Below, in pieces: positions 2,788 through 55,031 of a stretch of 64,000 nucleotides of DNA; the first letter of the stretch is position 1, and each line of letters opens with the position of its first letter. The DNA lies in contig JBAZPX010000001.1 of the NCBI GenBank assembly GCA_041645555.1, positions 22,505 through 86,504 of the forward strand, written 5' to 3'. Both the position numbers and the translations under genes were made by a program. This stretch comes from Patescibacteria group bacterium (GTDB lineage Bacteria; Patescibacteriota; Patescibacteriia; Patescibacteriales; JAQTRU01). The notes beneath the pieces are model-generated. The model did not search any database, was not told the origin of the DNA, and worked only from the letters and a program-made list of their open reading frames with translations.

Positions 2788-4277
<1,490 letters not shown>

Positions 4278-4557: not shown

Positions 4558-4586
4558 ATATTAAATCATTTCCAGATTAATGTCAA
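4558..4586 (-). promoter_or_regulatory. candidate sigma70-type promoter for the 16S transcript
   Basis: The minus strand reads TTGACA (4586-4581), a 17-nt spacer, then TAATAT (4563-4558), about 280 nt upstream of the mature 16S 5' end. Confidence 0.3.
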
Positions 4587-4705
4587 GGGATCTTATGAAC
4601 ATTATATCAACAGCCGGTTAAGTAGGTAAAAAATTTTAAATTTTACCGCTTTTTTAAGATAAATAATTTAATCCCAGCCGAACAAAATTATTGCCCGTTT
4701 TGAGT

Positions 4706-4715
4706 GGGGGGGGGG
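4706..4715. repeat. G10 homopolymer tract
   Basis: Ten consecutive G read directly. The tract sits exactly at the AT-rich to GC-rich composition boundary and abuts a TTGACG hexamer. Confidence 0.9.
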
Positions 4716-4716
4716 T

Positions 4717-4745
4717 TTGACGCAAGGGCTTTTCCGTGATACAGT
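4717..4745 (+). promoter_or_regulatory. candidate promoter for the beta-helix gene
   Basis: TTGACG (4717-4722), a 17-nt spacer, then TACAGT (4740-4745). This would leave a leader of over 200 nt before the ATG at 4972. Confidence 0.25.
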
Positions 4746-4971
4746 GAAAAATGCTCTTTTACAATTCCTGCACGGAGGCTTTGAAATCAACGCCGCCTTT
4801 GCAGGCTATATAGAAACATATAAAATCCCACACTATCCTTACGTTAGTTGGCTCACTCTAAAGAGGGAGGACATATTGGCTTTGAGGAAATCGGTGCATT
4901 ATGGAAGAAGTCGGATAAGCACGGTAAGGTTACGCTATTTCACTACTTCACTCACCTGGAAGGAGTATATC

Positions 4972-7140
4972 ATGAAGGGGAAACTGTTTTTCAGCGTCAT
5001 CGCGCTGATGTTAGCGATGGCAGTCGTCGGTAATGTCTATGGCGCAGCCCTGCAGGTTGGGGTTGGTCAGACATATACGATGATTCAGCCTGCTATTGAT
5101 GCTGCCAGTCCTGGCGACATCGTCAATGTGGAGGGGGGGAATTACACCGAACAAATCACGATAACCAAATCTCTGAGTCTGATTGGTGCGGGTGAAACAA
5201 CGACAACCATCCTCGCTCCGGCCGTGCGAACCGGCTCGGTGGTGCACAATGGAACCACCCACGACTACCTCCTGGCTGCCTATGCCACTGGCGGTACGAT
5301 TGATGTGCGCGTCCAGGGCTTTACGCTCGACGTAAACAGTAAGAACAAGACGCCAGGCACAGCGCAGATTGACGGAGTGTTCTTCCGCGATGTCAACGGC
5401 GCGAATGCCGGTCTTTTTTCCAGCACGATTCATAATTTCGCCGCTGCGCCGGCCTATGAAGGTTTCGGGGTGGTTGTGTATGGCGGTTCTCTTTTAACTT
5501 TGAATGACAATGATGTCAGCGATTACACGCGGGACGGCATCAGTATCAATCGTAACGGCGGCTCGGGATCAAATCCAAACGTGACGATCAGCGGGAACGC
5601 TGTCACGGGTACAGTCTCGGCGGCCTTGAATGGCATCAGTATTTCCACTGTTACCGCAGGCGCCGTGACGGGTAATACCGTCACCGGAAATTCCGGCAAC
5701 ATTCCAATGACCTGGGCGAGCGGAGGCATTGTTATTTGGACGTCTACCGGGGTACCTATCACCGGCAACCATGTCGACGGCAATTTCTACGGCATTGACC
5801 TCTACAATGGCAGCCATGATATAACAATCTCCGGAAACGAACTGACGGGCAACATCAAACGCGGCATCAGCTTGGGCGGTAATAGCCTGGGAACCAGTGT
5901 CGGTACGGATAATAGTACCGTGTCGGGCAATACGATTATCGGGCCTGTCGGCGGAACCGATGACGTGGCTATTGGCGTGGCCAATGGCTCCACGGGCAAT
6001 ATGATCGGCGGTCCAAACCCGGCAGACGGAAACACTATTACGATGGCCACGGCCGGCACCGGGAATCTCTATGCGATTCATATGGATGGAAGCATGGGCG
6101 CCGGTAGCAACACCATAAAGAACAATACTATTATCGGCGGCAAGCGCGCTGTGCAGTTTGACGGACCTCCGGGCGTCACCGGTCTCACCACCGTGGCGAA
6201 CAACGCAATTTCCAGCCAAGAATTCGGCGGCATTACGGCTTACAATACCGGCGACCTGGCCATCACCAACAACACCTTAACCAACGCGGTTCGTCCGATT
6301 GAGTTTTTTGGGCCTCGCGACGTAACGATTTCCGGCAATACTATCAACGGCTCCACTTTTGACGCCATAAATGCCGGAAGCTATACCGGAACAGTCATAG
6401 TTTCGGATAAAAACAAATTTATCAGTTTGCCGGCAGGTCCTCTCGCTCTCAATAATCAAGGCGCGGCAACGATCAACGCCGCCAACAACTACTGGGGTTC
6501 GGCTGCTAGTCCCGACGCTCTTGTGAGCGGTACCGTGGATTTCGATCCATGGTATATCGACGGGGAGATGCTTAATCTCTCCGATGCCGTGGCTGACGCA
6601 GATGATATCGCTGTTGCAACGGCGGACCCTCCTCCATTTGTGAATGTGGCCGCCAGCGTAACGGTTGATATTGTCGGCGCGGTTGGCACTGGCACAATCG
6701 TGACGTCCGCTTATTCGGCTGACCCTGTAACATCCACAACATTTTCGACCGCGCTTCCGGGAAAAGCAGCGTTGAAGTATGTTGACGTGCAGGTAACGGG
6801 CCTCACTGGCGGAACCGCCGTGATTACTGTTGATTACAGTGACGCGGAAGTGTCCGCAAAGGGCCTTGATGAAAATACGTTAATCCTGTACGTATGGTAT
6901 GGTGGCGCTTGGAATGCTCCAGTCTCTAGCCCAGGCAGAGATGTTATTAACAATAAAGTCTGGGGAACGTTCAACGTGACCGATTTAACCGGAGCGCCTG
7001 CTGCGCCGGGAGGTAGTCCTCCTCTTTCTGCTGCTATACCTACGTTGAATGAATGGGGACTCATTATCTTTGGTTCCCTAATCCTCGTAATAGCTGTAAG
7101 GTCCATAAGGAGGAAACAGCGTTTTGTAAATATTGCATAA
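4972..7140 (+). CDS. secreted right-handed parallel beta-helix repeat protein with IPTL-CTERM-like C-terminal sorting tail
   Basis: GGAAGGAG RBS at 4958-4965, then ATG 4972 and signal peptide MKGKLFFSVIALMLAMAVVGNVYGA. There are many (I/V)xGN...N beta-helix turns. The C-terminus is IPTLNEWGLIIFGSLILVIAVRSIRRKQR. The track ORF start at 4717 is rejected as a read-through of the leader. Confidence 0.8.
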   Translation: MKGKLFFSVIALMLAMAVVGNVYGAALQVGVGQTYTMIQPAIDAASPGDIVNVEGGNYTEQITITKSLSLIGAGETTTTILAPAVRTGSVVHNGTTHDYLLAAYATGGTIDVRVQGFTLDVNSKNKTPGTAQIDGVFFRDVNGANAGLFSSTIHNFAAAPAYEGFGVVVYGGSLLTLNDNDVSDYTRDGISINRNGGSGSNPNVTISGNAVTGTVSAALNGISISTVTAGAVTGNTVTGNSGNIPMTWASGGIVIWTSTGVPITGNHVDGNFYGIDLYNGSHDITISGNELTGNIKRGISLGGNSLGTSVGTDNSTVSGNTIIGPVGGTDDVAIGVANGSTGNMIGGPNPADGNTITMATAGTGNLYAIHMDGSMGAGSNTIKNNTIIGGKRAVQFDGPPGVTGLTTVANNAISSQEFGGITAYNTGDLAITNNTLTNAVRPIEFFGPRDVTISGNTINGSTFDAINAGSYTGTVIVSDKNKFISLPAGPLALNNQGAATINAANNYWGSAASPDALVSGTVDFDPWYIDGEMLNLSDAVADADDIAVATADPPPFVNVAASVTVDIVGAVGTGTIVTSAYSADPVTSTTFSTALPGKAALKYVDVQVTGLTGGTAVITVDYSDAEVSAKGLDENTLILYVWYGGAWNAPVSSPGRDVINNKVWGTFNVTDLTGAPAAPGGSPPLSAAIPTLNEWGLIIFGSLILVIAVRSIRRKQRFVNIA

Positions 7141-7162
7141 GGTTGCGGGGTGAATATAATTC

Positions 7163-7197
7163 GGGGACTGTCCACAGGACGGCCCCCTTTTTTATGT
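7163..7197 (+). terminator. intrinsic terminator of the beta-helix gene
   Basis: 11-bp stem (7163-7173 / 7177-7187, one mismatch), a 3-nt loop, then TTTTTTT. Confidence 0.7.
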
Positions 7198-7278
7198 GTC
7201 AGACATAATATAAGGGAATTTCTAAAAATTCTAGAATATCTTGCGATGAACTACACGGGAACAGTTGTTGTGCTAGTT

Positions 7279-7388
7279 GGGGTTTACCCCGTTAGAAATA
7301 ACACCCTTTTGTTTTATTTAGTGGGTTGGATTTCAGAATGATTTCGGCGGGATTTAGCACCCCGCTGGAATTTCTAACGGGGTTTACT
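7279..7388. repeat. inverted repeat pair ccccgttagaaat / atttctaacgggg with flanking direct ggggtttac
   Basis: 13-bp perfect inverted repeat (7287-7299 / 7370-7382). ggggtttac occurs at 7279-7287 and 7379-7387. Confidence 0.6.
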
Positions 7389-7602
7389 TTATTTATTATT
7401 TTTGCTACAATAGAAGCATATTTACACTCTATAGTCGGGTGATTTTTATTGTTTTAACCCCGCACCACAAAAGGGTGCGGGGCGACCCCACTTCGTCCCT
7501 AGTGTCTAAGGACTTCGAGGGGCAAGGACGAAGCGACATAGAATCTAAAGTTTTAAGACAAGCCTCTATGCTTGGAATGGAGTCGCACTTAATTCTTGAT
7601 AT

Positions 7603-8190: not shown

Positions 8191-11058
8191 ATGGCGATTA
8201 AGCAATCCACCTCTGCTAAAGCTACGGTGGACAAGAAAAACAAGAAGGCGAGAAAGCCCCACGCCTCCTCCTCCGTCAAGACTACGGAGGACAAGAAGGC
8301 TTTGCGGGGCAAGCACGAAAACAAGTTGCCTAAGCGGATAAAAAAAATAAAATCCGAAGGGTTGGTTAAGGCGGCAAAAAAAGTTGATAAGGAAACCCTT
8401 CGGCAAGCTTCCGCCGACGCTAAAGCTTTGGCGGACAAGCAGGGTGAAAAAGGAAAAGGGTTAAAAGAAGAAATAAAGAAGCCTGTTTCTGCCATGCCGG
8501 AGAAAGAAAGTAAAAAGGATAAAGAGCAGCCAGGCAAAGAAGTGGCCGAGGTAGCGGAGAAAGAAGGAGAGAAAACCATAAAATCCCAGGTCGTGGACGG
8601 CCGCAAAAAAACTGAATATGGCATGGTCATACCCCAGTCAATTGTGGGAGAAATGAGTACCTGCTATCTGGATTATGCCATGAGTGTAATTGTAAGCCGG
8701 GCTTTGCCCGATGTCCGAGACGGTTTAAAGCCGGTCCATCGGCGAATCCTTTATGCGATGTGGAGTATTGGGTTGAAAGCCGGGGCTAAATTTAGAAAGT
8801 CAGCGACCGTCGTCGGTGAAGTTTTAGGCAAATACCATCCGCATGGCGATTCTGCGGTTTACGAATCCATGGTTCGTATGGCTCAGGATTTTTCAATGCG
8901 GTATCAATTAGTCAGGGGACAGGGAAACTTTGGTTCTATGGATGGCGATGGTGCCGCGGCCATGCGTTATACCGAAGCTAAATTATCTTCAATCGCCGAA
9001 GAGCTTATTTTTGATATTGATAGAAATACTGTTGATTTTATTCCTAATTATGACGGGTCGCAAAAAGAACCAACCGTCCTGCCCGCAAAACTTCCTAATT
9101 TATTGTTAAACGGCGTAATGGGGATAGCGGTCGGTATGGCGACAAATATTCCTCCGCATAATTTAAAAGAATTGGTTGACGCCATAACTTATTTGATTGA
9201 CAAGCCGGCCGCCACCGTAGAAGATTTGATGCAGTTTGTTAAAGGGCCGGATTTTCCGACCGGCGGGATTATTTATAATAATAAAGATATTTTACAGGCC
9301 TATGCGACCGGCAAGGCCGGAATCGTTATGCGGGGCCGGGCCGAAATTACTGAAACTAAAGGTGGCAATTTCCATATTATCATTACGGAAATTCCTTATC
9401 AGGTGAATAAAGCCACTTTAGTGGAAAAAATCGCCGATTTAGTAAAAGACAAAAAGATTGAAGGCATAAAAGATCTGCGGGACGAATCGGATAAGGACGG
9501 CGTGAGAGTTGTGGTTGAGCTTAAAAAGGACGCTTATCCGAAGAAAATTTTAAACAGCTTATATAAGCATACTCAGCTGCAGGAAACTTTTCATGTCAAC
9601 ATGCTGGCTCTGGTAGACGGCATCCAGCCGAAGGTTTTAACTTTAAAAATGATTTTGGAAGAATATATCAAGCACCGGGAAGAAGTGGTAAGGCGCCGGA
9701 CCCAGTTTGATTTAGATCGGGCTCGCGCGCGCGCCCATATTTTAGAAGGCTTGATGATCGCTTTGAATAATATTGACGCGGTCATAAAAACGATTAAAGC
9801 TTCCCGCGACAAAGAAGTAGCCAAAGTGAGTTTAATGAAGAGGTTTAAACTTTCCGAACTGCAGGCCATTGCCATCCTAGAAATGAAATTGCAGAGTCTG
9901 GCTAATTTAGAGAGATTAAAAATAGAAGAAGAATTAAAAGAAAAGAGGAAACTTATAAAAGATTTAGAAGAAATTCTTAAATCCCAGGCAAAGATAAGAG
10001 GAATTATCAAAAATGAAATTAAAGATTTAGCGGATAAGTTCGGTGATGAGCGCAAAACTCAGATTGTGGCCCATGGCGTAAAAGATTTTAGCATAGAAGA
10101 TTTAGTGCCGAACGAGGAAACTATGGTTACGATGACCCGGGACGGCTATATAAAACGCCTGACCCCGGATACTTTTAAAGTCCAGGCGAGAGGCGGCAAG
10201 GGCGTAATCGGCTTAACGACCAAAGAAGAAGATACGGTTGAATTTATGTTTACCACCTTTACCCATAGCGACATTTTATTTTTCACTACCCGCGGAAGAG
10301 TGTTTCAGCTTAAAGCTCATGAAATTCCGCAGGCCTCCCGTACGGCCAAAGGCACGCCGGTTGTAAACTTTTTGCAGCTTTTGGGCGAGGAAAAAATAAC
10401 TTCGGTCCTGCCTTTGGATAAAATTTCTAACAGCAAGTTTTTATTCTTTGCGACGGAAAGAGGGTTAGTTAAGAAAGTAAAATTGGAAGCTTTTGCTAAT
10501 GTCCGCCGGTCGGGTTTAATTGCCATTAAGATAAAAGGGGAAGATAAATTAATCTGGGCCAAGCCAACCGGCGGCAATGACCATATCCAATTAATTACGG
10601 CCGGCGGGCAATCGGTGCGTTTTCAAGAATCCGATGTCCGCGATATGGGCCGCAATGCCGCTGGGGTGCGGGGGATCCGGCTCAAGAAAGATGATATTTT
10701 GATTGGTATGGGAATTATCAAGGGCGACAAAGAGAAGATGAAAAAATATCAGGTCTTAACCATAATGGAGCAGGGTTTTGGCAAACGGACAGCCTTAGGA
10801 TTTTATAAAGTTCAGGGCCGGGGCGGATCAGGAATTAAGACCGCCAAGGTGACAAGCAAGACCGGCAAGCTGGTTAACGCTTTTATAGTTAATACCGAAT
10901 CTATGGAAGAAAAAGATTTAATTGTGATTTCGGAGAAGGGGCAGGTGATAAGGCTGCCTTTCAAATCCGTTAACCAATTAGGCCGGGATACGCAAGGCGT
11001 AAGGCTGATGCGGTTTAAAGAGCAAAGTGATAAAGTGGCTTGCGTAACTTGGGTGTAA
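8191..11058 (+). CDS. gyrA: DNA gyrase subunit A with ~150-aa lysine-rich N-terminal extension
   Basis: Motifs [42 protein letters not shown] (catalytic Tyr) and C-terminal beta-pinwheel repeats. The conserved core begins near aa 155, so a downstream start (about 8650) cannot be excluded. Confidence 0.9.
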
Positions 11059-11138: not shown

Positions 11139-11681
11139 ATGAAAACAACGATGGTTATGTTGTTAGCGGCCATTTTTATGGTCTTGGGAGTTTTCCCCGC
11201 TTCTAGCGACGTAAGCATTATTGTTTGGGCCGATCTTTCAAAGATAAAAACTGTATCCGAAAATAGTGTTTATTCGGAGGAAGTTATTTTTGAAGACGGG
11301 AAAGCGGTTTGGCAAGGGTATGGCAAGTTCTATTTTGCCTTCTATAATGAGAAGGCTCTAAAAGATTTAGTCCAAGACGATTCAACCAAAGTTTTTCTCG
11401 CTCCTTACGGAGAGGGAGTTGTACCTTCTTTTGGTAATCTGTACATTGTTTTAAAGAATATTTTCGGGAGCGTCGGAACCGAGACTTACGGCCTTGAGGC
11501 CGAGACTTTTTACGTCTGGCCGGTTAAGTTTCCGGCCCCGTTAATTAGATTGAAAGATTCAGACGGAGCGGTTAGCTACAAAGGCATCGCGCCTTTCGGG
11601 GACGGCGCGATAGAAACAATGAAGGCAAGCGGCCGGCGGATAACGAAGAATTTCTTTGCGTCTTTAAAAATGCGGAAATAA
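11139..11681 (+). CDS. hypothetical secreted protein
   Basis: AAGGAGG RBS at 11126-11132, an N-terminal signal-like hydrophobic segment and a downstream terminator. Confidence 0.6.
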   Translation: MKTTMVMLLAAIFMVLGVFPASSDVSIIVWADLSKIKTVSENSVYSEEVIFEDGKAVWQGYGKFYFAFYNEKALKDLVQDDSTKVFLAPYGEGVVPSFGNLYIVLKNIFGSVGTETYGLEAETFYVWPVKFPAPLIRLKDSDGAVSYKGIAPFGDGAIETMKASGRRITKNFFASLKMRK

Positions 11682-11694
11682 AAAGAGCTTTTTT

Positions 11695-11730
11695 GAAAAG
11701 AACTGTTCGAGGGCAGTTCTTTTTTATTTT
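11695..11730 (+). terminator. intrinsic terminator
   Basis: aagaactg / cagttctt stem followed by TTTTTATTTT. Confidence 0.65.
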
Positions 11731-11862
11731 GGGAGTTGTTGATAAATATATTGAAATATGCTACATTATTGCATCAATGCTCGTTAATAATATTCTTTAT
11801 TTTATATAGAAGAGTTATTCATTAATTCCTCTTCTTATATTTTCCCTTCCAAGGAGGGTGTC

Positions 11863-12516
11863 ATGAAGGCAGCCAAATTTCCGTCCATCATCGTTGTTAT
11901 CATCGCGGTTTTTTTCACGGCGACCGTTCAGCCGGAAAGTCTGAACGCCCAAGCGGAAAGTCTGAACGTGGTGATCAAGGGCCTGAACTCGGACGAGACC
12001 TATCTGGTCACGTCGGTACTCAAATCCCACAAACTTCCCATTTCCACCCCCGTGGTGATCGAAAAGAGAGTAATAAGGGCTGATTGGAACGGCAAGCAAA
12101 AAGAATTCGATTTGATCAAGGTGACTATTCAGACGAAAGTTGGAAAATTCGTCGGTAATGTGGATAGCAGGAACTATCCGCAAATTCCGGGCGAGGAGTA
12201 TTACGGGCTTCTCCAGTTGGCCTTGACGTACGCCTGCGTGGGTCCGGAAAGGGCTCGGCTTGAGGCGAAACTGGACGCCGTTTTTTCCAAGATCAGTGAA
12301 AAGGTGGCCAGAGAAGCAAAAGATCGGGGCTATTCCGTTGTTTTTCAGAAGCGGAACTGTGGAACCGCGGAAGTTATGTTCACAGTCAACGGGATTTGGT
12401 GTAAGGTTGACTATTGGCCGGAAGGTAATAAACCCCCCGCTTACTCCATGGTCCGGAACAATACAATAGAACCTGTGGCTGGATTGGATGCCATTTTCGC
12501 ATCCATCCCGAAATAG
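11863..12516 (+). CDS. hypothetical secreted protein, compositionally GC-richer than its neighbours
   Basis: AAGGAGGG RBS directly upstream, signal-like N-terminus (MKAAKFPSIIVVIIAVFFTATVQP) and a strong terminator downstream. The longer antisense ORF 11815-12555 is rejected. Confidence 0.6.
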   Translation: MKAAKFPSIIVVIIAVFFTATVQPESLNAQAESLNVVIKGLNSDETYLVTSVLKSHKLPISTPVVIEKRVIRADWNGKQKEFDLIKVTIQTKVGKFVGNVDSRNYPQIPGEEYYGLLQLALTYACVGPERARLEAKLDAVFSKISEKVAREAKDRGYSVVFQKRNCGTAEVMFTVNGIWCKVDYWPEGNKPPAYSMVRNNTIEPVAGLDAIFASIPK

Positions 12517-29297: not shown

Positions 29298-31379
29298 ATG
29301 ATGACTAAATTTAATAAAAATTTAATAGTCATAATATTTTTAATTTTTGCCAGTTTTACTGTGGCTAATTTTGTTTTTGCCCAGGTAGATTTAGGGATGG
29401 AATATGGGGCGCAAATAGGACTGTCCGACCAGGACCCGCGCATTACGATTGCCAAAGTTATCCAGGCGGCTTTGGGATTTTTAGGAATCATTGCGGTTGT
29501 TTTAATTATGTATGCCGGCTGGCTGTGGATGACTTCCGAAGGCAATGAAGAAAAAATTGAAAAAGCCAAAAGTATTTTAAAAAATGCTGTTATCGGCCTA
29601 GTAATTATTTTATCCTCTTTTGCCATTGCCAGCTTTATTTTAAATAAATTAATGGGAGCGACTGGTGGCAGGGGAGGAGGCGGAGACGGCGGCGATGGGG
29701 GAGGCCCTGGCGGCGGAGCCGGCGTGCTTGGTTCTTGCACCGTAGAAAGCGTTTATCCCGAACCGGACCGGAAAGAAGTGCCGAGAAATACTTCGATTAT
29801 CGTTACTTTTAGGGAGGAAATAGCTACTTCCACTATTTGCGCAGATACTAATGGCAATGGGCTTTTTTGCGATACCGCCGGTAACGGCGATGATATTATA
29901 ACCGACGGGAGAGTTATGATTTACAAGAGCGTTGATGGAGAAACCAGGGCGGATAAGTTTATCGGGGAAGTTAAAGTTTCCACAAAAGACAATAAGACTT
30001 TTGTTTTTACGCCGCGCGCTTATTTGGGTTCTCCGTCAGAAAGCATTTGGTACACGGTTTATCTAAGCAACGTCATAAAGAAAGTAGATGGCGGTAAAAT
30101 TTTTGATACTTGCGGCCGGGATTATCTGGAGTGGCAATTCCAGGTTAGCAACAAAATTGATTTAGAGCCCCCGCAAATAAAGGCGGCAGATAAGGGCGGA
30201 ATTTCGCCTAAGCCGGCAAGCACCAAGCCGAGAAATTCCGTTATCCAGATTAATTTTAACGAGGCCATTAACCCAATAACGGTTTCCGGGAGCGCTGAAG
30301 AAGTAAAAAATTATATAAGAATAGTAAATGCGGCCGCTTCCCCGGTTGCTTTCGACGGAGCTTGTACTAAAGACGCTGATTGTATTTCTTTTAAATGCAA
30401 TTTAAGTTCAAGAAAATGCGAAGGGACGAACGACTATTTAGAAGGAAGATTTATTGTTTCCAACCAATATCAAACGGTTGAGTTTATAAGCAACAACCAA
30501 TGCGGGGTTAATGGCTGCGGAGAGAAAATTTACTGTTTGCCGGGCGGTAGCAAGATAAAAGTGGAATTAAAAGCGGCCACTTTAATTAGCTGCGTGGATT
30601 GCGCTGCCCGTACTCCTTATAATACTTGTTCTAATGAATCCGTGCCAGAAAACGGTCATTGCCGAGACAAGGATGGGAAAAATTATCCGGCTTCGGATAC
30701 TGGTTTGCTGGACGGAGTAATGGATGTCGCTTTTAACTCTTTAGACGGCAACCGGGTTAAGGGCGCTGAAGGGCCGGTTACTTATTATGAGGAAAAGGAG
30801 AGCCCGGATACTGCCCAAGGCGATAATTATCAATGGTCTTTTTCAACCAGCGATGTAATTGATTTAAGCCCGCCGGAAATTATCGACATTTCCCAAATAA
30901 ACGCTTCTGACACAGAGCAGGATCTTTACCAAGGAGCTACCGGCGCTCATCTGGCTAATCCGATTTTAATTACTTTTGATAAGTTAATGATGTCTTCCAG
31001 CTTAATGCCGGGCAGTATTACGGTAAATAACGGACAGGAGGACGGGGATGTTATACATAAACGGATTAATTTAATTTCTGCAAAATCCACCCTTGATCCT
31101 CCTAAGCCAGATCCGGTATTGCCCGGATATCAGATAGGGAAAGAAGACATCCCTGAGGTTGGTCCTACCCAGACCCAGGCAGAGATAACGCATTCTATGT
31201 TTGGAGACTCAATTAAATATCGGGTCCAAGTGGGGTCAGGAGTAAAAGACTGGCTTCAGAATTGCTTTAAGCCGAGCGTCGGGCCGGGTTGCGCCGGGGC
31301 TCCTTCTTGCTGTCCGGACGCGGGGACGGCCATGAAGCCGGCCAGTACGCTTTCTGCAGACGGAAATTGCCTCCCATAG
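29298..31379 (+). CDS. surface protein: T4SS-pilin-like (VirB2/TrbC-type) two-TM N-terminal module, Gly-rich linker and SbsA/Big_5-like Ig domains with Cys-rich inserts
   Basis: Signal peptide ...FVFAQ, then ALGFLGIIAVVLIMYAGWLWMTSEGNEEKIEKAKSILKNAVIGLVIILSSFAIASFIL. The G/D linker is GGRGGGGDGGDGGGPGGGAG. Repeated V.S..P......VPRN..I.V.F..I-type Ig starts. Confidence 0.8.
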   Translation: MMTKFNKNLIVIIFLIFASFTVANFVFAQVDLGMEYGAQIGLSDQDPRITIAKVIQAALGFLGIIAVVLIMYAGWLWMTSEGNEEKIEKAKSILKNAVIGLVIILSSFAIASFILNKLMGATGGRGGGGDGGDGGGPGGGAGVLGSCTVESVYPEPDRKEVPRNTSIIVTFREEIATSTICADTNGNGLFCDTAGNGDDIITDGRVMIYKSVDGETRADKFIGEVKVSTKDNKTFVFTPRAYLGSPSESIWYTVYLSNVIKKVDGGKIFDTCGRDYLEWQFQVSNKIDLEPPQIKAADKGGISPKPASTKPRNSVIQINFNEAINPITVSGSAEEVKNYIRIVNAAASPVAFDGACTKDADCISFKCNLSSRKCEGTNDYLEGRFIVSNQYQTVEFISNNQCGVNGCGEKIYCLPGGSKIKVELKAATLISCVDCAARTPYNTCSNESVPENGHCRDKDGKNYPASDTGLLDGVMDVAFNSLDGNRVKGAEGPVTYYEEKESPDTAQGDNYQWSFSTSDVIDLSPPEIIDISQINASDTEQDLYQGATGAHLANPILITFDKLMMSSSLMPGSITVNNGQEDGDVIHKRINLISAKSTLDPPKPDPVLPGYQIGKEDIPEVGPTQTQAEITHSMFGDSIKYRVQVGSGVKDWLQNCFKPSVGPGCAGAPSCCPDAGTAMKPASTLSADGNCLP

Positions 31380-31410
31380 AATTTGATTCTAAACAATGGC
31401 ATTGTTTTTT

Positions 31411-31463
31411 GTCATTGCGAGGACCCCGTCCCGCTTTGGTGGGACGGGAGACGAAGCAATCTC
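31411..31463. repeat. third copy of the 'gtcattgcgagga...cgaagcaatctc' element
   Basis: Same termini as 16517-16559, but the internal hairpin differs (ccccgtcccgctttggtgggacgggag). Confidence 0.8.
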
Positions 31464-31570
31464 ACGAACTGAAAATTCTAGCTTAAATATTACTACTTTG
31501 TATTAATTTTTTATTCTGAAATACAAGGACTTAGTCGCCTCCATGACGACTAAGTCCCAGAACTCCCTTT

Positions 31571-34500
31571 ATGTCTAAGTTCAGGAAAAATTTAATAGTG
31601 ATAGTGTTTTTGATTATAGCCGGTTTTGTAACGGTTAATTTTGCTTTGGCGCAAGGCCTTGACGTTGGGATGGAATACGGGGAGCAAATAGGATTAGGCA
31701 GCGCTGACCCGCGAATAATGGCGGCTAATGTTATTAGAATTGCTTTAGGATTTTTAGGAATTATTGCGGTTGGTTTGATTATTTACGCCGGCTGGCTTTA
31801 TATGACCGCGGCCGGGCAGGAGGAAAAAATTGAAAAGGCTAAGAAAATTTTAATCAACGCGATCATCGGTTTAGTTATTATTTTATCAGCTTTTGCCATT
31901 GCCAGTTTTGTTTTAAACAGGTTTCTGGAAGCCACCACTCCCGGGGTTGATCTTAGCGGCGACGGCACGGATGATGACTGGAGCACGCCCGACGCTAGCT
32001 CCAATGAATTTTTTGTCAGTTCTATTTCGCCGTCTGGGGGTAATGTTATTAGGAATGCAAAAATAAGATTTAATTTTAATAAAACAGTTGACGCTACAAC
32101 CGTGAAGGAACTCACTTTAATCGTAAATGACAGTGAAGGTTCGGTTGCTGGCGCCCGGACAGTAAACGGCAGAACAATTGAGTTCGTGCCCGATTCTCCC
32201 TGCCCTGATAATCCATGCGGGGCAAAAAATTGTTTCACAAATGGTTTAGCTGTAACGGTAGAAGTGGTAAGTGGTGCGGGCGGAATTTTAAGTGTTGATG
32301 GAAAGGAAATAAATTGCAGCCTTGGCGCTACGTGTAAAATTGGTTTTACAGTTGGCAATGTTATTGATTGTGAAGACCCCACCGTGAACCTTTCTTTTGA
32401 TAACGGGCAGGTATGCGTAGGCGCTAATAATATAAGTGCTAATTCCACAGATGATTCTGGGGTAGCCAGCATTGAATTTTTTGCCGATGGAATCTCACTT
32501 ATTGATACCTCCGTTGATGACTCCAATCCCAATCCAGTATTTAATCCTAGTAGTAATAGTCCCTTTTCCGCTTCGGTTATTTGGGGTAGCGGCACATATA
32601 CGGTCGGGAAAGAGGTGGTTTTTAAAGCCACAGCTTTTGATTTAGATGATCATAGTAAAAATGATGAAAAATCAACAAAATTACGGCCCGCGCATTGCTG
32701 TAATGGGACTTTGGATACAGATGCTGCCATTAAAGAAGATGGAGTAGATTGTGGGGGCAAAGATTGCGCTAGTTGCGAAGGTGCGGCTTGCGGCATTAAA
32801 ATGAGTAGTGGATGCAGTGCTGCTGATTCGAGCAATTGCGATAATAGCCGATGTTCTTCAAATTTTTGTAATTGCGGCACCTATCCGAATGTTTCTGATA
32901 GTGAAAGTTGCCAAACAAAAGGTTATACCGCGGCAGTTGCAAATAAATGCTGTGTTTGTGAAAATGCGCCCAGAATTGACTGGATAACTCCAATAGGAGG
33001 ATTTTGTAAAGGAAGTCCTGATACACCCTGTCAGAGTAATGACGATTGCACTAGTCCAGATACTTGCGATACGAATGCTCCTAATGGAGCTTTTGGCAAC
33101 TTCGTAACTATTGGCGGAAAATATTTTGGCAGTACCAAAGGAAAAGCAACTTTTCTTGGTGGCGTTGGAGATAGTGACAATAAAGAAGCCTCTTTATGTA
33201 ATGATAAAAGTTGGCAAGACGGTCAAATAACCGTCATCGTGCCCACAGGAGCGGTTAACGGGCCGATTAAAGTAACGGAAGCGGGAGCTAGCGGGTATGA
33301 AGATACTACGGACAATGAGCGGGGAGCTTTTATCCCTTCCTTTGTAGTAAATAATATAGCCCGGCCAGGAATTTGCAGTCTGGATACGAATCGCGGAATA
33401 ATGAATAAAGAAATTACTTACCAGGGCGTAAATTTATTGGCTGGCAAAGCTTATTTTGGCGCGATGGCAAAAAAAATATCCGCCTTAGATTCTAAGTTTG
33501 CCGTTGCTGATAGTGGGAAGGCCAAGGTGCCGAATATTAAGACTGGAAAAACTGCCACTTTTGTTTTAAATGACGGCCTAGCCAGCAATTACTTGGATTT
33601 TACAAAAGACCCAGAACCCTATGTCGGCCCGAAAATTGATTCTTTTGAACCCGTTTCCGGAGCGCCCGGGCAATATGTGACAATTCGCGGAAGCGGTTTT
33701 GGCGGAATGCAGGGAGCGAGTAAAGTTTATTTTGGCGATGTGGCGACCGGTAAAGAAGCTAGTTATCAGTTCCCGAAAATTTGCGCTGACAGTATTTGGA
33801 GTGATAAACAAGTGATAGTTAAAGTACCGGTTGATTCAGCAAACAGTTTTATAAATATGGAAATTGTCAGAGTCAGCGAGAAGAAAACTTATCCCATATC
33901 CTCTAAAGATCAATTTACAGTTAATAGCGCTCCCTTAACCCCGAGTTTATGTAAAATTGACCCGACGATGGGGCCAACCAATAGTTCAGTAAGTTTATGG
34001 GGAGAAAATTTTGGCGACAAAGCGACCGGTTTGGTTAGATTTTATTCCAATAGAGATAAGACGGGTATAACAGACTGGGCTATAGATAACTCTGCGAGCG
34101 GTACTATTAAACCATATAAAATTACAACTACAGTTCCCCAAGAAGCGCAAACCGGCCCTGTTCAAGTTGTTCAGGATACGCTTGTTGGCAATAGCTTAAA
34201 TTTTACAGTTGGCAGTTGCGCGAGTAATGACGACTGCGCGGGAAATGCGACTGATAAATTTTGTTGCCCAGCTGGCAGCAGCGAAGCCGGCAAATGCAAA
34301 GAAAATATAAAAGACGATTGTTATATTACTGTTGCCAGCTCGGTTTATGAGTGGGAGTTTTCTACGGGAGATAATACTCCTCCCGTTACCCCTTATTACA
34401 GTTGTCTGGGGAAGAGCAAGGCAACCGGCAAATGCGATTCTGGCGGGACTTGCCCCAATTCACCCGGCAAGTGCTCGTTTTATGGAGGGGGAGCTCAGCA

Positions 34501-37500
34501 AACAGTAGTAGATTGCAGCGATGCCTATTGTAGCAGTGTACGCGACGGATGGACTTATAATAGTGTTTTAAATAAATGTATTGATCCCGTTCAAGGCGAA
34601 TGTGATTTAAATGATCCTTCAGCTACAGACGCTTTGGGCAATAAAGTAGCGGCTTATTGCGCTAAATATAATAGCGGTAATTATTGGCATATTGATACTA
34701 AAAATTGCCCTGACGGTTGGACAAAAATTTCCGGAGATAAATGCGTTGACATGGATTCAACTTGCAGATTATGCAGCTCTAGTTCTGTTTGCCTGGACGA
34801 TAAGTCTGGCGACCCTAAAAAAGGGCTATGCGCCATTAACCAAGATATCTGTCCAAGCGGTTATACTTGCAACGCCACTAGTAATAAATGTGAATTAAAA
34901 GACTGCGGCGATGGATATTGCAATGACGTACGCGCTGATTGTGATTCTAGATGTACTTACAATAGTACTTTAAATAAATGTGCTACTACTGACATCTGCG
35001 ATTTAAACGATCCCCTTTTAACTAAAGATATTGAAGGCAAGAAAATAGTGGCTTATTGCGCTGAATATAGCAGTATTGGCCGCTGGCACATTGATACTAA
35101 ATTAAATTGCCCTTCTTCTGACTGGACAAAAATTGGCGATAAATGCGTTAATACAAAGTTAAACTGCGGAGTATGCGGCTCTGGTTTTGCTTGCCTGGAC
35201 GACAAGTCTGGCGACCATAAAAAAGGGCTATGCGCCATTAACCAGGATGTCTGCCCGGGCGGTTTCACTTGCAACGCTACTAGTAATAAATGCGTACCAA
35301 CTAATACGACAGGTTGTGAATGTTGCTGTCGCCTGGATAATAGCAAAGAAGATTGTTGCGCGCCTTTAACCTGCGAGGGGAATTGCGGCAGCGATGTTTC
35401 CGGCACAGATACTGATACTTATGGGCGTTGTTCTGGTTGCGCTAACGTCAGCACAGATCAGACATTACGTGATGCGGCTTGCAATTGCGCAGGACATAGC
35501 GGAAAAATTTGCGATGCCAGTGCCCCGGGCGGTGTTTGCCGAGATTGCGAGGGGCTGTCTAAAACAGAGTGTTCATCTCATTCTACTTGTTGTGTTGATG
35601 CTATGAATGGAGAAATCTGCCGAGGCGGGACAGGCAATCCCAGTATAATTGATTATGATAATTTAGCTTATTGCGAATATTATCAATGCGAGGCCAGCGG
35701 TGATGCTTGCGATCCAACCAATAATCCGGTAGCCAGTTCAACCAGAAGTGTTTACGGAACAGAAATAGAATGCGGAGAAAAATGTTCAGGAGTAAGCCGG
35801 CCGGGTGAAACATGTTTGGCAGAAAGCGCTCCCTCAACCTGCAGTTCGGTTTATGGCAGTTGCGGAACCGGTTACGGTTGTATGGCAACGACTGATGATG
35901 TTTGCGGTACCTGCTGTTGCAACCCGAAGACGCCAGAGGTTAATCCCAATGGTTTAATTTGCGTTCCGAACAAATTGCCTTGTACTAGCGACACTGGCGA
36001 CCGCGGACTTTATTGCGGCTGTCAAGAAGACAAGGATTGCGGTTCGGAAGAATCAGCCGGCTGCTCTTCTGATACCTGCTGCCGGACAAAGCCAACAGTT
36101 TTAAACACTTATCCTGCGGACACCGGCGTTTGCCGCAACACTTTGATTTCCGCTTCTTTTGATCAAAAAATGGATATCGCGAGTTTCTCCGGCAATATAG
36201 TCGTGGTAGGAGATTATGAGGATAGCGTTTGCCCAACTGGCACCCAATATTTAGCTTTAAATAAGGGAGCGGTCGTCAAAAAGAATATAGCCGCCAGTTT
36301 TTATCAGAAAATTTTATCAATTCTGGCTAAAGCCGTACGGCCTTTATTCGGCGGGAAAGTTTTAGCCGGCACAACCGACCCAAACCATAATTATTGCTCC
36401 CTTGCCGGAAAAGTGAGCGGAATTGATAAGGCGGACGGAACCTCTGACTTAATTTTTAGTCTTAATAAGCCGTTGGACCCAACCCGGAAGTATTATGTGA
36501 TAATAAAAGGAGACGAGGGTTTTGATAGCAGCAAGGGGGTGCTTTCTAATTGGGGAATCGGCCTGAACGAAGAGGATATAGAAACTTTTAGCGGTAAAAC
36601 TTTTACCAAGGCAAAAATTTGGTCATTCACGACCGGTAATGAAATCTGCCAGTTGGAAAGCGTAAAAATAGTCCCGGAGAGCTATGTATTCCAAAAAGCC
36701 GGTGCTATTGGCAGTTGGGATTTTGAGGCCAAGCCATATTCTTCAGGCGGTCAAATTATAAATTCCGTTACTGGGTATAGCTGGGGATGGAACTGGAGCT
36801 CTGATAATGAAAAGATAGTTAGTGTTGTTAATTCTAGTAATTCTATCCAGACAGCAACAGCCCAGAATATTAAAGACGGGAAAACATTTATTAAAGCGAC
36901 CGCTACCATTACCGAAGATATAGTAAATACACCCAGCACTAAGGATAAGGTTAAAACCGGCCAGGCAGAAGTGTATGTGTTTTTATGTGAAAATATTTGG
37001 CCGCCGATAATTAGTGGCACTTGGGCGCCATGGCGTGATGAAGGCACGAATTGCTTATCCAGCACCGGTGATTGCGCCAATACCAATTATGAACTTTATT
37101 ACTGCCGCGATAAAGGGGCGGCTGGTTCGGCTGATGATTTGCCGGCAATTTTGAGCGACACAATTATCAGAGGAGCTAGTTTGATGTGTGTTGGCGATAC
37201 TGGGAATTGCAGTAGTTTGGGGGCTACTTGCGGCTCTTTAGGAAAATGCCAGTATGATATTTTAAAGGAAGCTTATTTCTTTAGGGAAGAGACGCCGGGC
37301 ATGGCTTCTGATGTATTATTATCAGGAGCAGCTTTGCCGCGAGGGAAAACGGTTAAACTAACTTGGCATAAACTCGGCCGATGTGATAATGGTGAAAGTT
37401 GCGGAGTTGGTTTAACCTCGCCTTGCTCTGACGGCAGCGAATGCGTAAAAGATACCAGCGTAAGCGGTTATAAAATTTATTATGGCGCAGACAGAAATAA

Positions 37501-38206
37501 TTTTAACGCTCCCATAAATGTTAATAATGCGGACACTCTTTCAGTAGAACTCGGGCAAGGCGCTGCCGCCCCTTTTAACATTACTGATTTAAATAATGGC
37601 GATAGTTATTATTTTGCCGTGACGGCTTATTACGGCGATGTAGCCAGCAATATAGAGAGCGCGCTTTCTAACGTAATTGAAATTAAGGTAGAAGATACAA
37701 TAGGCCCGGCGGCTCCGACAATGACTCTAACCCCGGGAGATAAAAAAGTAGTAGTAAGTTGGGTCGATGGTAGCGGAGAGGCAGTTAATTTTAGGGTTTA
37801 TTATAAGGCAACTTCAGATTGTAGCGCCGCGACAAATTTTGGCGATTCGCAAGTAGCAATTAAGAGCCCGGTGACTATTTCTGGTTCTGGCTTAAATAAT
37901 GAAGCAGTTTATTGTTTTGGCTTAGTGGCTTATGATGCGGAGAACAATGAAGGCGAGAAGGCTATCGGCTCGGCCGCTCCGACTCGTTTTGAGAAAGACA
38001 AAATTTGTGATGGAGACATAATTTACGAAGAAACAACCCACCATACCACAAAAGAGTGCCTGGATATGTGTATTGCCAAAGATGCTCCCTGTTGCCAGAT
38101 AAATAATCCGCCCGTTGATGGTTACTGCTATGCCAGGAAAGGCGCGGTTGTTGTTTCGCCGGAAGAATATATTAATATTTGGGCGCGGGAGAAATCTTCT
38201 TATTAA
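31571..38206 (+). CDS. giant (2211 aa) Cys-rich surface protein: T4SS-pilin-like N-terminal module plus Ig-like, four IPT/TIG-like, Big_2-like and two FN3-like domains and long Cys-rich arrays
   Basis: N-terminal 120 aa are paralogous to 29298-31379 (ALGFLGIIAVGLIIYAGWLYMTAAGQEEKIEKAKKILINAIIGLVIILSAFAIASFVL). IPT-like segments at about aa 466-572, 598-668, 684-764 and 789-880. FN3-like at about aa 1915-2137. Uninterrupted ORF. Confidence 0.85.
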   Translation: MSKFRKNLIVIVFLIIAGFVTVNFALAQGLDVGMEYGEQIGLGSADPRIMAANVIRIALGFLGIIAVGLIIYAGWLYMTAAGQEEKIEKAKKILINAIIGLVIILSAFAIASFVLNRFLEATTPGVDLSGDGTDDDWSTPDASSNEFFVSSISPSGGNVIRNAKIRFNFNKTVDATTVKELTLIVNDSEGSVAGARTVNGRTIEFVPDSPCPDNPCGAKNCFTNGLAVTVEVVSGAGGILSVDGKEINCSLGATCKIGFTVGNVIDCEDPTVNLSFDNGQVCVGANNISANSTDDSGVASIEFFADGISLIDTSVDDSNPNPVFNPSSNSPFSASVIWGSGTYTVGKEVVFKATAFDLDDHSKNDEKSTKLRPAHCCNGTLDTDAAIKEDGVDCGGKDCASCEGAACGIKMSSGCSAADSSNCDNSRCSSNFCNCGTYPNVSDSESCQTKGYTAAVANKCCVCENAPRIDWITPIGGFCKGSPDTPCQSNDDCTSPDTCDTNAPNGAFGNFVTIGGKYFGSTKGKATFLGGVGDSDNKEASLCNDKSWQDGQITVIVPTGAVNGPIKVTEAGASGYEDTTDNERGAFIPSFVVNNIARPGICSLDTNRGIMNKEITYQGVNLLAGKAYFGAMAKKISALDSKFAVADSGKAKVPNIKTGKTATFVLNDGLASNYLDFTKDPEPYVGPKIDSFEPVSGAPGQYVTIRGSGFGGMQGASKVYFGDVATGKEASYQFPKICADSIWSDKQVIVKVPVDSANSFINMEIVRVSEKKTYPISSKDQFTVNSAPLTPSLCKIDPTMGPTNSSVSLWGENFGDKATGLVRFYSNRDKTGITDWAIDNSASGTIKPYKITTTVPQEAQTGPVQVVQDTLVGNSLNFTVGSCASNDDCAGNATDKFCCPAGSSEAGKCKENIKDDCYITVASSVYEWEFSTGDNTPPVTPYYSCLGKSKATGKCDSGGTCPNSPGKCSFYGGGAQQTVVDCSDAYCSSVRDGWTYNSVLNKCIDPVQGECDLNDPSATDALGNKVAAYCAKYNSGNYWHIDTKNCPDGWTKISGDKCVDMDSTCRLCSSSSVCLDDKSGDPKKGLCAINQDICPSGYTCNATSNKCELKDCGDGYCNDVRADCDSRCTYNSTLNKCATTDICDLNDPLLTKDIEGKKIVAYCAEYSSIGRWHIDTKLNCPSSDWTKIGDKCVNTKLNCGVCGSGFACLDDKSGDHKKGLCAINQDVCPGGFTCNATSNKCVPTNTTGCECCCRLDNSKEDCCAPLTCEGNCGSDVSGTDTDTYGRCSGCANVSTDQTLRDAACNCAGHSGKICDASAPGGVCRDCEGLSKTECSSHSTCCVDAMNGEICRGGTGNPSIIDYDNLAYCEYYQCEASGDACDPTNNPVASSTRSVYGTEIECGEKCSGVSRPGETCLAESAPSTCSSVYGSCGTGYGCMATTDDVCGTCCCNPKTPEVNPNGLICVPNKLPCTSDTGDRGLYCGCQEDKDCGSEESAGCSSDTCCRTKPTVLNTYPADTGVCRNTLISASFDQKMDIASFSGNIVVVGDYEDSVCPTGTQYLALNKGAVVKKNIAASFYQKILSILAKAVRPLFGGKVLAGTTDPNHNYCSLAGKVSGIDKADGTSDLIFSLNKPLDPTRKYYVIIKGDEGFDSSKGVLSNWGIGLNEEDIETFSGKTFTKAKIWSFTTGNEICQLESVKIVPESYVFQKAGAIGSWDFEAKPYSSGGQIINSVTGYSWGWNWSSDNEKIVSVVNSSNSIQTATAQNIKDGKTFIKATATITEDIVNTPSTKDKVKTGQAEVYVFLCENIWPPIISGTWAPWRDEGTNCLSSTGDCANTNYELYYCRDKGAAGSADDLPAILSDTIIRGASLMCVGDTGNCSSLGATCGSLGKCQYDILKEAYFFREETPGMASDVLLSGAALPRGKTVKLTWHKLGRCDNGESCGVGLTSPCSDGSECVKDTSVSGYKIYYGADRNNFNAPINVNNADTLSVELGQGAAAPFNITDLNNGDSYYFAVTAYYGDVASNIESALSNVIEIKVEDTIGPAAPTMTLTPGDKKVVVSWVDGSGEAVNFRVYYKATSDCSAATNFGDSQVAIKSPVTISGSGLNNEAVYCFGLVAYDAENNEGEKAIGSAAPTRFEKDKICDGDIIYEETTHHTTKECLDMCIAKDAPCCQINNPPVDGYCYARKGAVVVSPEEYINIWAREKSSY
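34511..35299 (+). repeat. tandem duplication of a ~130-aa Cys-rich module inside the giant gene
   Basis: aa ~981-1110 and ~1111-1243 align (YC..VR..C.YNS.LNKC...CDLNDP...AYCA.Y.....WHIDTK.NCP..WTKI.DKCV....C..C.S...CLDDKSGD.KKGLCAINQD.CP.G.TCNATSNKC). Confidence 0.85.
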
Positions 38207-44561: not shown

Positions 44562-45374
44562 ATGAAAAACTTTTTTAAAAAAACCTTAAAATTTATTTCT
44601 TCCCGGTTAGTTTACTTGGCTATTGGTATTTTTTTAGCCATCTCAATCACTTATGTCTATGCCGCCTGGGATACTGCTAAAACCGGGGGTTCGGGTCAGG
44701 TTGGCCAGGGCAATTGGAACTCCTTAGTTAACGAAATCCATAATAAATGTGGCAGTAACTGCGATGCTACAGCCTCCGCCGCTACGGCTTCTGGCAATAA
44801 TTTAACGGAAAATAATTGGAATAATTTAATTGATCTGGCAAATAATACCTTAGTGGATTGTACTGATAATAACGGAGGAAAATGTTTTATTAACCAAACT
44901 TCCAAAAGTGCCTTAGATCTTGACTTAGTGGCTGGAAATATTAAAAACGGAGTTAATATTTTCGGTGTTGGCGGAACTTTAGTCTCTCAAGTGGCGCCGA
45001 CAGATTGCGCCGGTTCAGAGAATATTGGCAAGGGCTGCGGAGGAGGTATTTTCATCGGTAGTAATCTAGTAATTAGCCCTGGCGTAAAAGACGCTGCGGC
45101 TTTTAGTTCCAGTCTTTGTAGTGGAACTTATAATGGTTTTTCAAACTGGAGGTTACCAACTCTAGCCGAACTAAGTACGGGCGTTTTGCATACTAGCTAT
45201 AGCCATTGGCTTAATAGTAATTATGAGGTTTATTTACAATCAAGCCAGTATAACGGCCCATTTCAGGGCAATATGAAATGTAACCCAATTACCGGAGACT
45301 GTGTAACGTTGCCTTTCCAATGTGCTATGCTCCCATGCTTAGAGCGTTATAGATGCGTTAGAGAAATTAATTAG
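44562..45374 (+). CDS. secreted protein, conserved-leader family member A1, DUF1566/Lcl-C-like C-terminal domain
   Basis: Leader MKNFFKKTLKFISSRLVYLAIGIFLAISITYVYA|AWDTAKTGGSGQ. The shared central region has LVAGNIKNGVNIFGVGG. The C-terminus has SNWRLPTLAEL. Confidence 0.7.
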   Translation: MKNFFKKTLKFISSRLVYLAIGIFLAISITYVYAAWDTAKTGGSGQVGQGNWNSLVNEIHNKCGSNCDATASAATASGNNLTENNWNNLIDLANNTLVDCTDNNGGKCFINQTSKSALDLDLVAGNIKNGVNIFGVGGTLVSQVAPTDCAGSENIGKGCGGGIFIGSNLVISPGVKDAAAFSSSLCSGTYNGFSNWRLPTLAELSTGVLHTSYSHWLNSNYEVYLQSSQYNGPFQGNMKCNPITGDCVTLPFQCAMLPCLERYRCVREIN

Positions 45375-45405
45375 TTGGTTTTTGCCTTATTTTACCGATT
45401 GAATT

Positions 45406-45939: not shown

Positions 45940-46058
45940 ATGATAAAAAAGGAGTCTTAAATTAGGTCAACTCTATTTTTTGGGTTCACTCTTATTAAAA
46001 GGAAAAGGCTGACCGCAGCATAAATTATTCTCTTTGCCTTATTTTTAAATATAATTTT

Positions 46059-51694: not shown

Positions 51695-55031
<3,337 letters not shown>

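Follow-up and report, generated by a model that had tools for sequence, protein, structure and literature searches.

Introduction

In the exosortase/PEP-CTERM and archaeosortase/PGF-CTERM systems, a tripartite tail of the substrate protein is recognized by a polytopic membrane transpeptidase. We analyzed a gene whose product ends in a tail of the same type, IPTL-CTERM. The gene lies in a 64-kb stretch of Patescibacteria DNA (contig JBAZPX010000001.1, positions 22,505–86,504), which is called the window below and whose numbering is used throughout. The stalk and tail of the encoded beta-helix protein are homologous to substrates encoded directly 5' of XrtM/XrtH-like exosortases. The cassette carrying the window gene differs from such loci in having neither the enzyme gene nor the gene for the SEC-C-motif protein that accompanies it on two contigs (L097 and L098).

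The window protein shares with the IPTL-CTERM family a signal peptide, an IPTLxxWG motif, a hydrophobic helix, a basic cluster, and a putatively surface-exposed passenger domain. It differs in its host, a Patescibacterium in which no exosortase was found nearby (64 kb), and in its origin as a single gene that was inserted recently and has a mosaic passenger domain. According to hidden Markov model (HMM) and Foldseek comparisons, this domain has the CASH/NosD-like fold of the parallel beta-helix polysaccharide enzymes (PL6 alginate lyases, AlgE4/AlgE6/AlgG, inulin fructotransferase, GH28, and tailspikes). It is set apart from them by the lack of a significant sequence match to solved structures and by low template modeling (TM) scores.

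Promoter-associated homopolymeric tracts underlie phase variation in Neisseria, Haemophilus, and Bordetella. The window likewise has a run of about 10 G next to the promoter of the surface-protein gene, read as G10 or G9 depending on the assembly. Here, the tract lies 5' of the –35 hexamer and not in the spacer or the coding region.

The explanation that we favor, and consider probable as a whole, is that a promoter-to-terminator cassette of about 2.5–2.6 kb was acquired by a Falkowbacteria-like member of the Patescibacteria. The cassette encodes a mosaic, putatively surface-exposed protein with an IPTL-CTERM tail, and no exosortase gene is found within the 64 kb.

Results and Discussion

Empty Sites in Related Genomes

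The beta-helix gene (4972–7140, + strand) is the sole open reading frame (ORF) of the insert. It adjoins the complete 16S rRNA gene (2789–4277, – strand), from which it diverges, and is followed 3' by p192, a gene without family matches, and gyrA. A scan of Joint Genome Institute (JGI) metagenomes with p192 yielded five related contigs, L088, L089, L090, L091, and L093. These are 98–99.4% identical to the window in 16S and 87–90% in GyrA. L088 and L089 have the full order of tryptophanyl-tRNA synthetase, p135, 16S, p192, and GyrA, and the shorter L090, L091, and L093 cover the 16S–p192(–GyrA) part. The beta-helix gene was missing from all five. The relatives have 100–330 bp at the site, compared with about 2.5–2.6 kb in the window (4685–7282).

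Alignments with these contigs defined the two junctions. Homology runs to about position 4617, continues more weakly to about 4685, and resumes at 7283. The left junction zone (4667–4705, + strand) contains the last recognizable homology to L088–L091. The right junction zone (7198–7282, + strand) is AT-rich and has no match in the insert-free relatives. It is followed by the native spacer hairpin with the arms TTTACCCCGTTAGAAAT and ATTTCTAACGGGGTTTAC (7283–7387), at which the homology resumes. On this side, the foreign DNA ends somewhere between 7197, the end of the terminator, and 7282, and may include as much as about 85 bp past the terminator. The predicted 16S promoters (4558–4630, – strand) are in the flank conserved with the insert-free relatives, and the insertion did not disrupt them.

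A palindromic motif (TTTACCCCGTTAGAAA / TTTCTAACGGGGTAAA) occurs once to several times in the 16S–p192 spacer of this lineage, for example, at L088 9538–9580 and L089 7507–7740. In the window, a degenerate copy (4667–4683) stands to the left of the insert and an intact inverted pair (7283–7387) to the right. We considered the motif as a genome-wide repeat or insertion target and rejected it, because its copies in the window are local only.

More distant genomes gave no further empty sites. By GyrA, the nearest species-level genomes are metagenome-assembled genomes of Candidatus Falkowbacteria (76–81% identity), and no empty site could be obtained from these species representatives because the 16S–gyrA synteny is not kept in them. 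An exact protein look-up with p192 returned no insert-free allele from the same strain.

Foreign Composition of the Insert

A preliminary description, made from the letters of the window alone, had noted that the segment 4706–7197 is far richer in GC than its surroundings. Its GC content is 52.4% (53.3% for the coding sequence), compared with 40.1% for the window when the 16S gene and the insert are left out. The gene has a GC fraction of 0.533 and a third-position fraction (GC3) of 0.571; the 44 other ORFs of the window gave 0.400 ± 0.042 and 0.394 ± 0.065, respectively. The segment was the strongest tetranucleotide outlier of the 64 kb. Its correlation with the rest of the window was 0.12, the window minimum, against a mean of 0.89 (standard deviation 0.11). 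Synonymous codon use differs as well between the gene and the rest of the window, with Leu CTC at 0.29 vs. 0.03, Leu TTA at 0.12 vs. 0.44, and Ile ATC at 0.43 vs. 0.14. This shift indicates that the difference in composition does not stem from amino-acid bias alone. The long antisense ORFs mentioned in the preliminary description are present (140, 216, and 113 aa), and follow trivially from the high GC.

These data bear on the question of whether the gene could be native, its high GC arising merely from the Gly/Ala/Thr-rich composition of a beta-helix. The protein does contain much G, A, T, and V, and little K and E. Moreover, the gene of P0010, a related protein from a second Patescibacteria genome, is also a tetranucleotide outlier though its genome matches it in GC, so the signal is partly compositional. 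A native origin is nevertheless contradicted by the empty sites in five syntenic relatives, and amino-acid content does not cover the shifted GC3 and synonymous codon choice. We give it practically no weight.

Considered together, the five empty sites and the foreign composition and codon use strongly support a recent horizontal acquisition of this single gene, one of the two readings that had been proposed.

Both Junctions Recur in Other Assemblies

The preliminary description had offered a second reading, in which unrelated DNA had been joined as an assembly chimera or through a poly-G artefact of two-colour sequencing. The sharp change of composition at the poly-G run and the two short contigs that begin there speak for it. 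We found the exact protein on five other contigs (L001–L005), which come from European Nucleotide Archive (ENA) MEGAHIT, Logan, and JGI assemblies, and from at least two sequencing runs (SRR8449827 and SRR8449812). All five are 100% identical to the window across the region, apart from the length of the G tract. The window, L001, L002, and L003 read identically through the left junction, as do all six assemblies through the right one. Unique sequence encloses the internal G run, and a homologous cassette forms an equally clean insertion in a second genome. These observations leave a chimera or artefact very improbable, and we rejected it.

The short contigs break at two places. L004 and L005 start 9–10 nt before the G tract, and L003–L005 end at 7389–7393. 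At the latter ends, a stretch of about 50 nt is identical in the insert-free relatives, which would give a branch in the assembly graph if the relatives co-occur in the sample.

A Second Cassette and a Mosaic Gene

Comparison of the protein with its relatives divided it into parts of different affinity. The core (residues ~35–450) is 52–67% identical to P0002–P0007, which are encoded on Dehalococcoidia-like, Chloroflexi-like, and unassigned metagenome contigs and end in various other C-terminal domains. At the nucleotide level, the best identity found for the core was 75–79%, to L094 and L095. The ends are nearest to P0010, a protein of 539 aa with a different (Pel9A-like) beta-helix core. BLASTP gave 75% identity to P0010 over residues 1–72 and 67% over residues 450–722, which include the tail. 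The similarity extends to the flanking DNA: the leader is 84% identical in nucleotide sequence, and the terminator is homologous.

P0010 is encoded on a 693-kb contig with 48% GC, assembled from SRR8449827, the same run as one copy of the window gene. Its neighboring proteins cluster with Candidatus Kaiserbacteria. At this locus (L006 9836–11729), a cassette of 1,894 bp, comprising promoter, leader, the P0010 gene with its IPTL tail, and terminator, separates the genes for an AAA ATPase and a PduO adenosyltransferase. The same two genes are 11–14 bp apart in L101–L106 (empty site at L101 7918–7930). Related cassettes have therefore entered two Patescibacteria lineages of one community by independent insertions.

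According to these alignments, the window gene is a mosaic, with ends that share ancestry with the Kaiserbacteria-like cassette and a core from a Dehalococcoidia-like lineage. The core of the window copy would have been exchanged before or after the insertion.

Start Codon and Expression Signals

The coding sequence (4972–7140, + strand; 722 aa) is represented in GenBank by MFA4833239.1, which is annotated from a TTG at 4717 and already carries the name 'IPTL-CTERM sorting domain-containing protein'. The frame is open for 85 codons upstream of ATG 4972, back to this TTG (4717–4971). We rejected TTG 4717 as the start, because the start of P0010, the Shine–Dalgarno sequence GGAAGGAG (4958–4965, + strand; 6 nt 5' of the ATG), and the signal peptide all place it at 4972. 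The GenBank start is probably an over-extended call.

A consensus scan located a sigma-70-like promoter with a TG extension at 4717–4745 (+ strand; 9 of 12 matches), consisting of TTGACG (4717–4722), a 17-bp spacer, and TACAGT (4740–4745). It is the best sigma-70-like promoter by the G tract, and is directly 5' of the conserved leader. The homology block shared with L006 begins at about 4739, and in both cassettes a sigma-70-like promoter is found just upstream of the start of the conserved leader. This promoter is plausibly the one in use.

The 5' leader (4739–4825, + strand; 87 nt) aligned with L006 9881–9965 at the 84% nucleotide identity given above, and is conserved to the same degree as the coding ends. 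It contains a 13-bp hairpin (4767–4805), in which pairing is kept through one compensatory and one G–U change; with two sequences to compare, these changes are a weak sign of a conserved structure. Rfam contained no known RNA matching the leader, and the whole leader folds no better than shuffled controls (z = –1.0). Downstream of the gene, an intrinsic terminator (GGGGACTGTCC-ACA-GGACGGCCCC followed by a T run; 7163–7194, + strand) is homologous to the one after P0010. Its hairpin (7163–7186, followed by T6) has a folding energy of –16.8 kcal/mol.

The G Tract

The G10 homopolymer (4706–4715, + strand) coincides with the left border of the foreign DNA or is no more than about 20 nt away from it, in line with the earlier remark that the insert beside the 16S gene begins at this tract. 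It is the only G/C run of at least 8 nt in the window. Among 1.45 Mb of other loci, mostly from Patescibacteria, we found a single G/C run of at least 9 nt. L001 and L003 agree with the window in reading G10, and L002, L004, and L005 read G9. Apart from a low-complexity indel in GyrA, the six assemblies are otherwise the same over the shared 2.7–22 kb. The tract is probably unstable in length. The alternation of G10 and G9 fits slipped-strand heterogeneity, and could also be a homopolymer error.

The tract is separated by 1 nt from the –35 hexamer 3' of it, and lies outside the ORF and the –35/–10 spacer. The preliminary description had suggested that, by abutting TTGACG, it could act as a slipped-strand on/off switch. 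The adjoining hexamer is there and the G10 and G9 readings would fit slippage, but a switch was not established. As a contingency locus, the tract would switch or tune the transcription of the surface protein through slipped-strand changes in its length. The sole difference among the assemblies falls in it, it abuts the best sigma-70-like promoter, runs of such length are rare in these genomes, and two contigs break right at it. On the other hand, its position 5' of the –35 hexamer means that its length leaves the –35/–10 spacing unchanged, and it is not part of the ORF either. In addition, the homologous L006 cassette has no such tract, and a change of one base at a 10-nt homopolymer may be a sequencing or assembly error. 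In the light of these points, we regard a contingency function as doubtful.

Domains of the Protein

The preliminary description had read the product as a single protein with a signal peptide, parallel beta-helix repeats, and an IPTL-CTERM tail (TIGR04174). HMM searches and a structural model bore out this reading. The Sec signal peptide MKGKLFFSVIALMLAMAVVGNVYG|AA (4972–5043, + strand) reads MKGKLFF...VYG|AA, is 75% identical to that of P0010 according to BLASTP, and was modeled as a helix at residues 2–22. A right-handed parallel beta-helix follows (residues ~27–495; 5050–6456, + strand), supported by Pfam, AlphaFold, and Foldseek. The Pfam matches are Beta_helix PF13229 (5e-18, 65.7 bits; cutoff 25.9) and NosD PF05048 (1.9e-12, 47.6 bits; cutoff 23.6). 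The NosD equivalog model TIGR04247 gave 58.5 bits against a cutoff of 300. This value is far below the cutoff, and indicates that only the repeats are shared with NosD, a protein of nitrous oxide reductase maturation.

The third domain is a stalk module, 'NYWG...DPWY' (residues ~500–688; 6469–7035, + strand). It is 67–68% identical to P0010 and P0088, and more distantly related to archaeal proteins with other tails. The IPTL-CTERM tail (residues 689–722; 7036–7137, + strand) consists of IPTLNEWG-LIIFGSLILVIAV-RSIRRKQR, that is, the signature motif, a hydrophobic helix, and a basic cluster at the extreme C-terminus. TIGR04174 (cutoff 20.5) scored 26.5 bits with the whole protein and 33.0 bits with the isolated tail; PF18203 (cutoff 20.8) scored 18.8 and 25.4 bits, respectively. 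The tail also resembles the recognition region of the 'midcut-by-XrtH' model, under the cutoff of that model.

The AlphaFold model, built on 32 homologues, had a mean predicted local distance difference test (pLDDT) score of 77.5. The beta-helix was modeled confidently at residues ~27–495, with pLDDT > 90 over most of residues 30–480, and a terminal helix was formed at 694–719, within the tail. The stalk (~530–690) was poorly modeled, with low confidence. A Foldseek search against the PDB returned PL6 alginate lyases, mannuronan C5-epimerases, inulin fructotransferases, GH28, and phage tailspikes (E from 2e-7 to 1e-4); no PDB sequence homologue of the protein was found. The model and these matches suggest a secreted beta-helix that binds or processes glycans.

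The distribution of the tail is broader than the preliminary description had it. IPTL-CTERM was said to be known mainly from Proteobacteria, which proved too narrow: the S-layer protein mela_00855 of Methylomirabilis lanthanidiphila carries it (PMC8671808), and the stalk-plus-IPTL module occurs in unrelated metagenomic bacteria.

Sorting Partner

Proteins with the same stalk were collected with a profile that also modeled the P0010 core, and only matches over profile positions ~290–540 were used. A search with the 58-aa tail alone gave no candidates. The 'NWWG...PW plus stalk' module is widespread, with differing tails. An IPTLNEWG tail follows the stalk in the window protein, P0010, P0088, P0089, P0123, and P0203; these tails scored 18–39 bits, with P0088 under the cutoff. 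A second group has a PEF-like tail with weak arch_PEF_CTERM matches, and a third tail type is found in a group that includes Bathyarchaeia proteins.

In all three IPTL-tailed relatives outside the Patescibacteria for which downstream DNA was available, the next gene encodes an exosortase-family protein of 167–179 aa that matches PF09721. These genes (L097 12931–13470, L098 441–968, and L099 831–1334) adjoin those of P0123, P0203, and P0088. Their products scored 55–61 bits with exo_archaeo (cutoff 23), 110–117 with XrtM (cutoff 125), and 60–68 with XrtH (cutoff 86). All lie slightly short of the XrtM and XrtH cutoffs, and seem to represent an exosortase subtype without a curated model. In L097 and L098, the exosortase is followed by a polytopic membrane protein that ends in a SEC-C metal-binding motif. 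The IPTL-tailed stalk protein, small exosortase, and SEC-C-motif membrane protein form a conserved set outside the Patescibacteria (L097 12931–14167; L098 441–1650; L099 831–1334).

No such substrate–exosortase pair is present in the window, where the gene is followed by the terminator, the native spacer, and p192. The 64 kb contained no exosortase, and the polytopic membrane proteins encoded there are a Wzy_C ligase, a YdjM-like protein, and a PMT_2 glycosyltransferase only. tblastn with the three exosortases gave no match in the window and 1.55 Mb of compared loci. Neither was an exosortase found in 21.6 kb around P0010, where the next gene of L006 is the PduO adenosyltransferase. The earlier statement that the tail has no obvious processing partner is, thus, borne out locally by the family scan and tblastn, and only locally, with the partner adjacent in the relatives outside the Patescibacteria. 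Our literature search found no paper linking exosortases to Patescibacteria or the Candidate Phyla Radiation (CPR), and nothing relevant on XrtH.

The tail might still be a working substrate, which an unlinked enzyme of the exosortase/archaeosortase family would cleave at IPTL to attach the protein to the envelope. Both Patescibacteria copies have an intact tail above the threshold. Furthermore, the same stalk occurs with PEF-like or other tails in archaeal proteins, including the Bathyarchaeia cluster, which suggests that tails are matched to the sorting system of the host. This is opposed by the lack of an exosortase in the window, around P0010, and in the compared loci, by the adjoining position of the enzyme gene in the relatives, and by the lack of a paper on exosortases in Patescibacteria in our literature search. 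Processing by an unlinked enzyme is, in our judgment, possible and rather unlikely. We place anchoring without processing at even odds. What probability remains is shared by other outcomes, among them a passenger gene without function. Decay is argued against by the ORF, which is intact and the same in six assemblies, and by the preserved expression signals.

Proposed Route of Acquisition

Under the explanation favored here, horizontal transfer would have placed a single-gene cassette (promoter, leader, coding sequence, and terminator) in the spacer between the 16S promoter region and p192–gyrA. The exosortase gene that adjoins the IPTL-tailed relatives outside the Patescibacteria would have been left behind in the transfer. 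The protein would be exported via Sec, and the C-terminal hydrophobic helix and basic cluster could act as a stop-transfer anchor in the cytoplasmic membrane. The beta-helix would then face outward from a single-membrane cell and may act on a polysaccharide, environmental or from a host cell, by binding or cleaving it. Cleavage by an exosortase would take place only if an unlinked enzyme is encoded elsewhere in the genome.

Several observations weigh against this explanation or parts of it. The insert has no integrase or transposase gene and no tRNA target, and no convincing flanking direct repeats or target-site duplication were found. No phage or plasmid carries a relative of the gene, and no near-identical donor DNA was found, the best match being the 75–79% quoted for the core. 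Some of the 'independent' assemblies may share read sets. For the putative glycan-directed role, neither catalytic residues nor a substrate were identified, and the TM-scores of the Foldseek matches are low (0.2–0.3) and generic to beta-helices. The absence of an exosortase applies to the 64-kb window of a 301-kb contig, and an unlinked one may be encoded in the other ~240 kb or elsewhere in the genome. Finally, the intact tails of the two Patescibacteria copies, together with the tail variety in archaea, hint at processing rather than a passive anchor.

A broader proposition extends beyond this locus. Patescibacteria may trade surface-protein cassettes, the tails being co-opted as sortase-independent anchors or cut by an unrecognized CPR enzyme, with expression tuned by slippage of the G tract. 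We consider this combination improbable.

Other Features of the Region

Further differences between the window and its relatives were observed outside the insert. Two genes for small secreted proteins, p180 and p217, lie between gyrA and rmuC (11139–12516); p217 has a GC fraction of 0.50 and a GC3 of 0.61. Neither gene is found in L008, L088 has p217 alone, and L090 has p180 alone. The p180–p217 stretch could be a further variable islet. In GyrA, assemblies of one strain disagree in the lysine-rich extension at the N-terminus, where there is an indel or replacement (window 8395–8462 vs. L001 13424–13443; 955 vs. 939 aa).

The 16S genes of the insert-free relatives contain insertions of ~940–1000 bp near model positions 82–133 (L088 6789–7730; L089 4432–5426), and those of L089–L093 contain a further ~135 bp near positions 1403–1422 (L089 6697–6831). 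None of these insertions is present in the window 16S gene; similar rRNA insertions are common in the CPR.

Elsewhere in the window, four paralogous secreted proteins with nearly identical N-termini and divergent, Cys-rich C-termini are encoded beside type IV pilin-like genes (44562–46535 and 51695–52663). Two large proteins (693 and 2211 aa) have a common N-terminal Mbov_0395/TrbC-like pilin domain (29298–38206).

Conclusions

With its empty sites, a second independent cassette, and a mosaic passenger domain, the locus provides a clean case of recent gene gain in an ultra-small, groundwater-type bacterium with a reduced genome. It shows that surface-protein genes move between such organisms as single expression units. 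If the G tract is variable and regulatory, the locus would point to phase variation of surface functions in episymbiotic bacteria. Should the trade in cassettes and the tuning by the tract both be true, no contingency locus would have been described in the CPR before this one. Otherwise, the gene is an ordinary horizontal acquisition, already labeled by automated annotation. In either case, the finding raises the question of whether exosortase-type sorting exists in Patescibacteria, or whether such tails serve as plain membrane anchors once they are parted from their enzyme.

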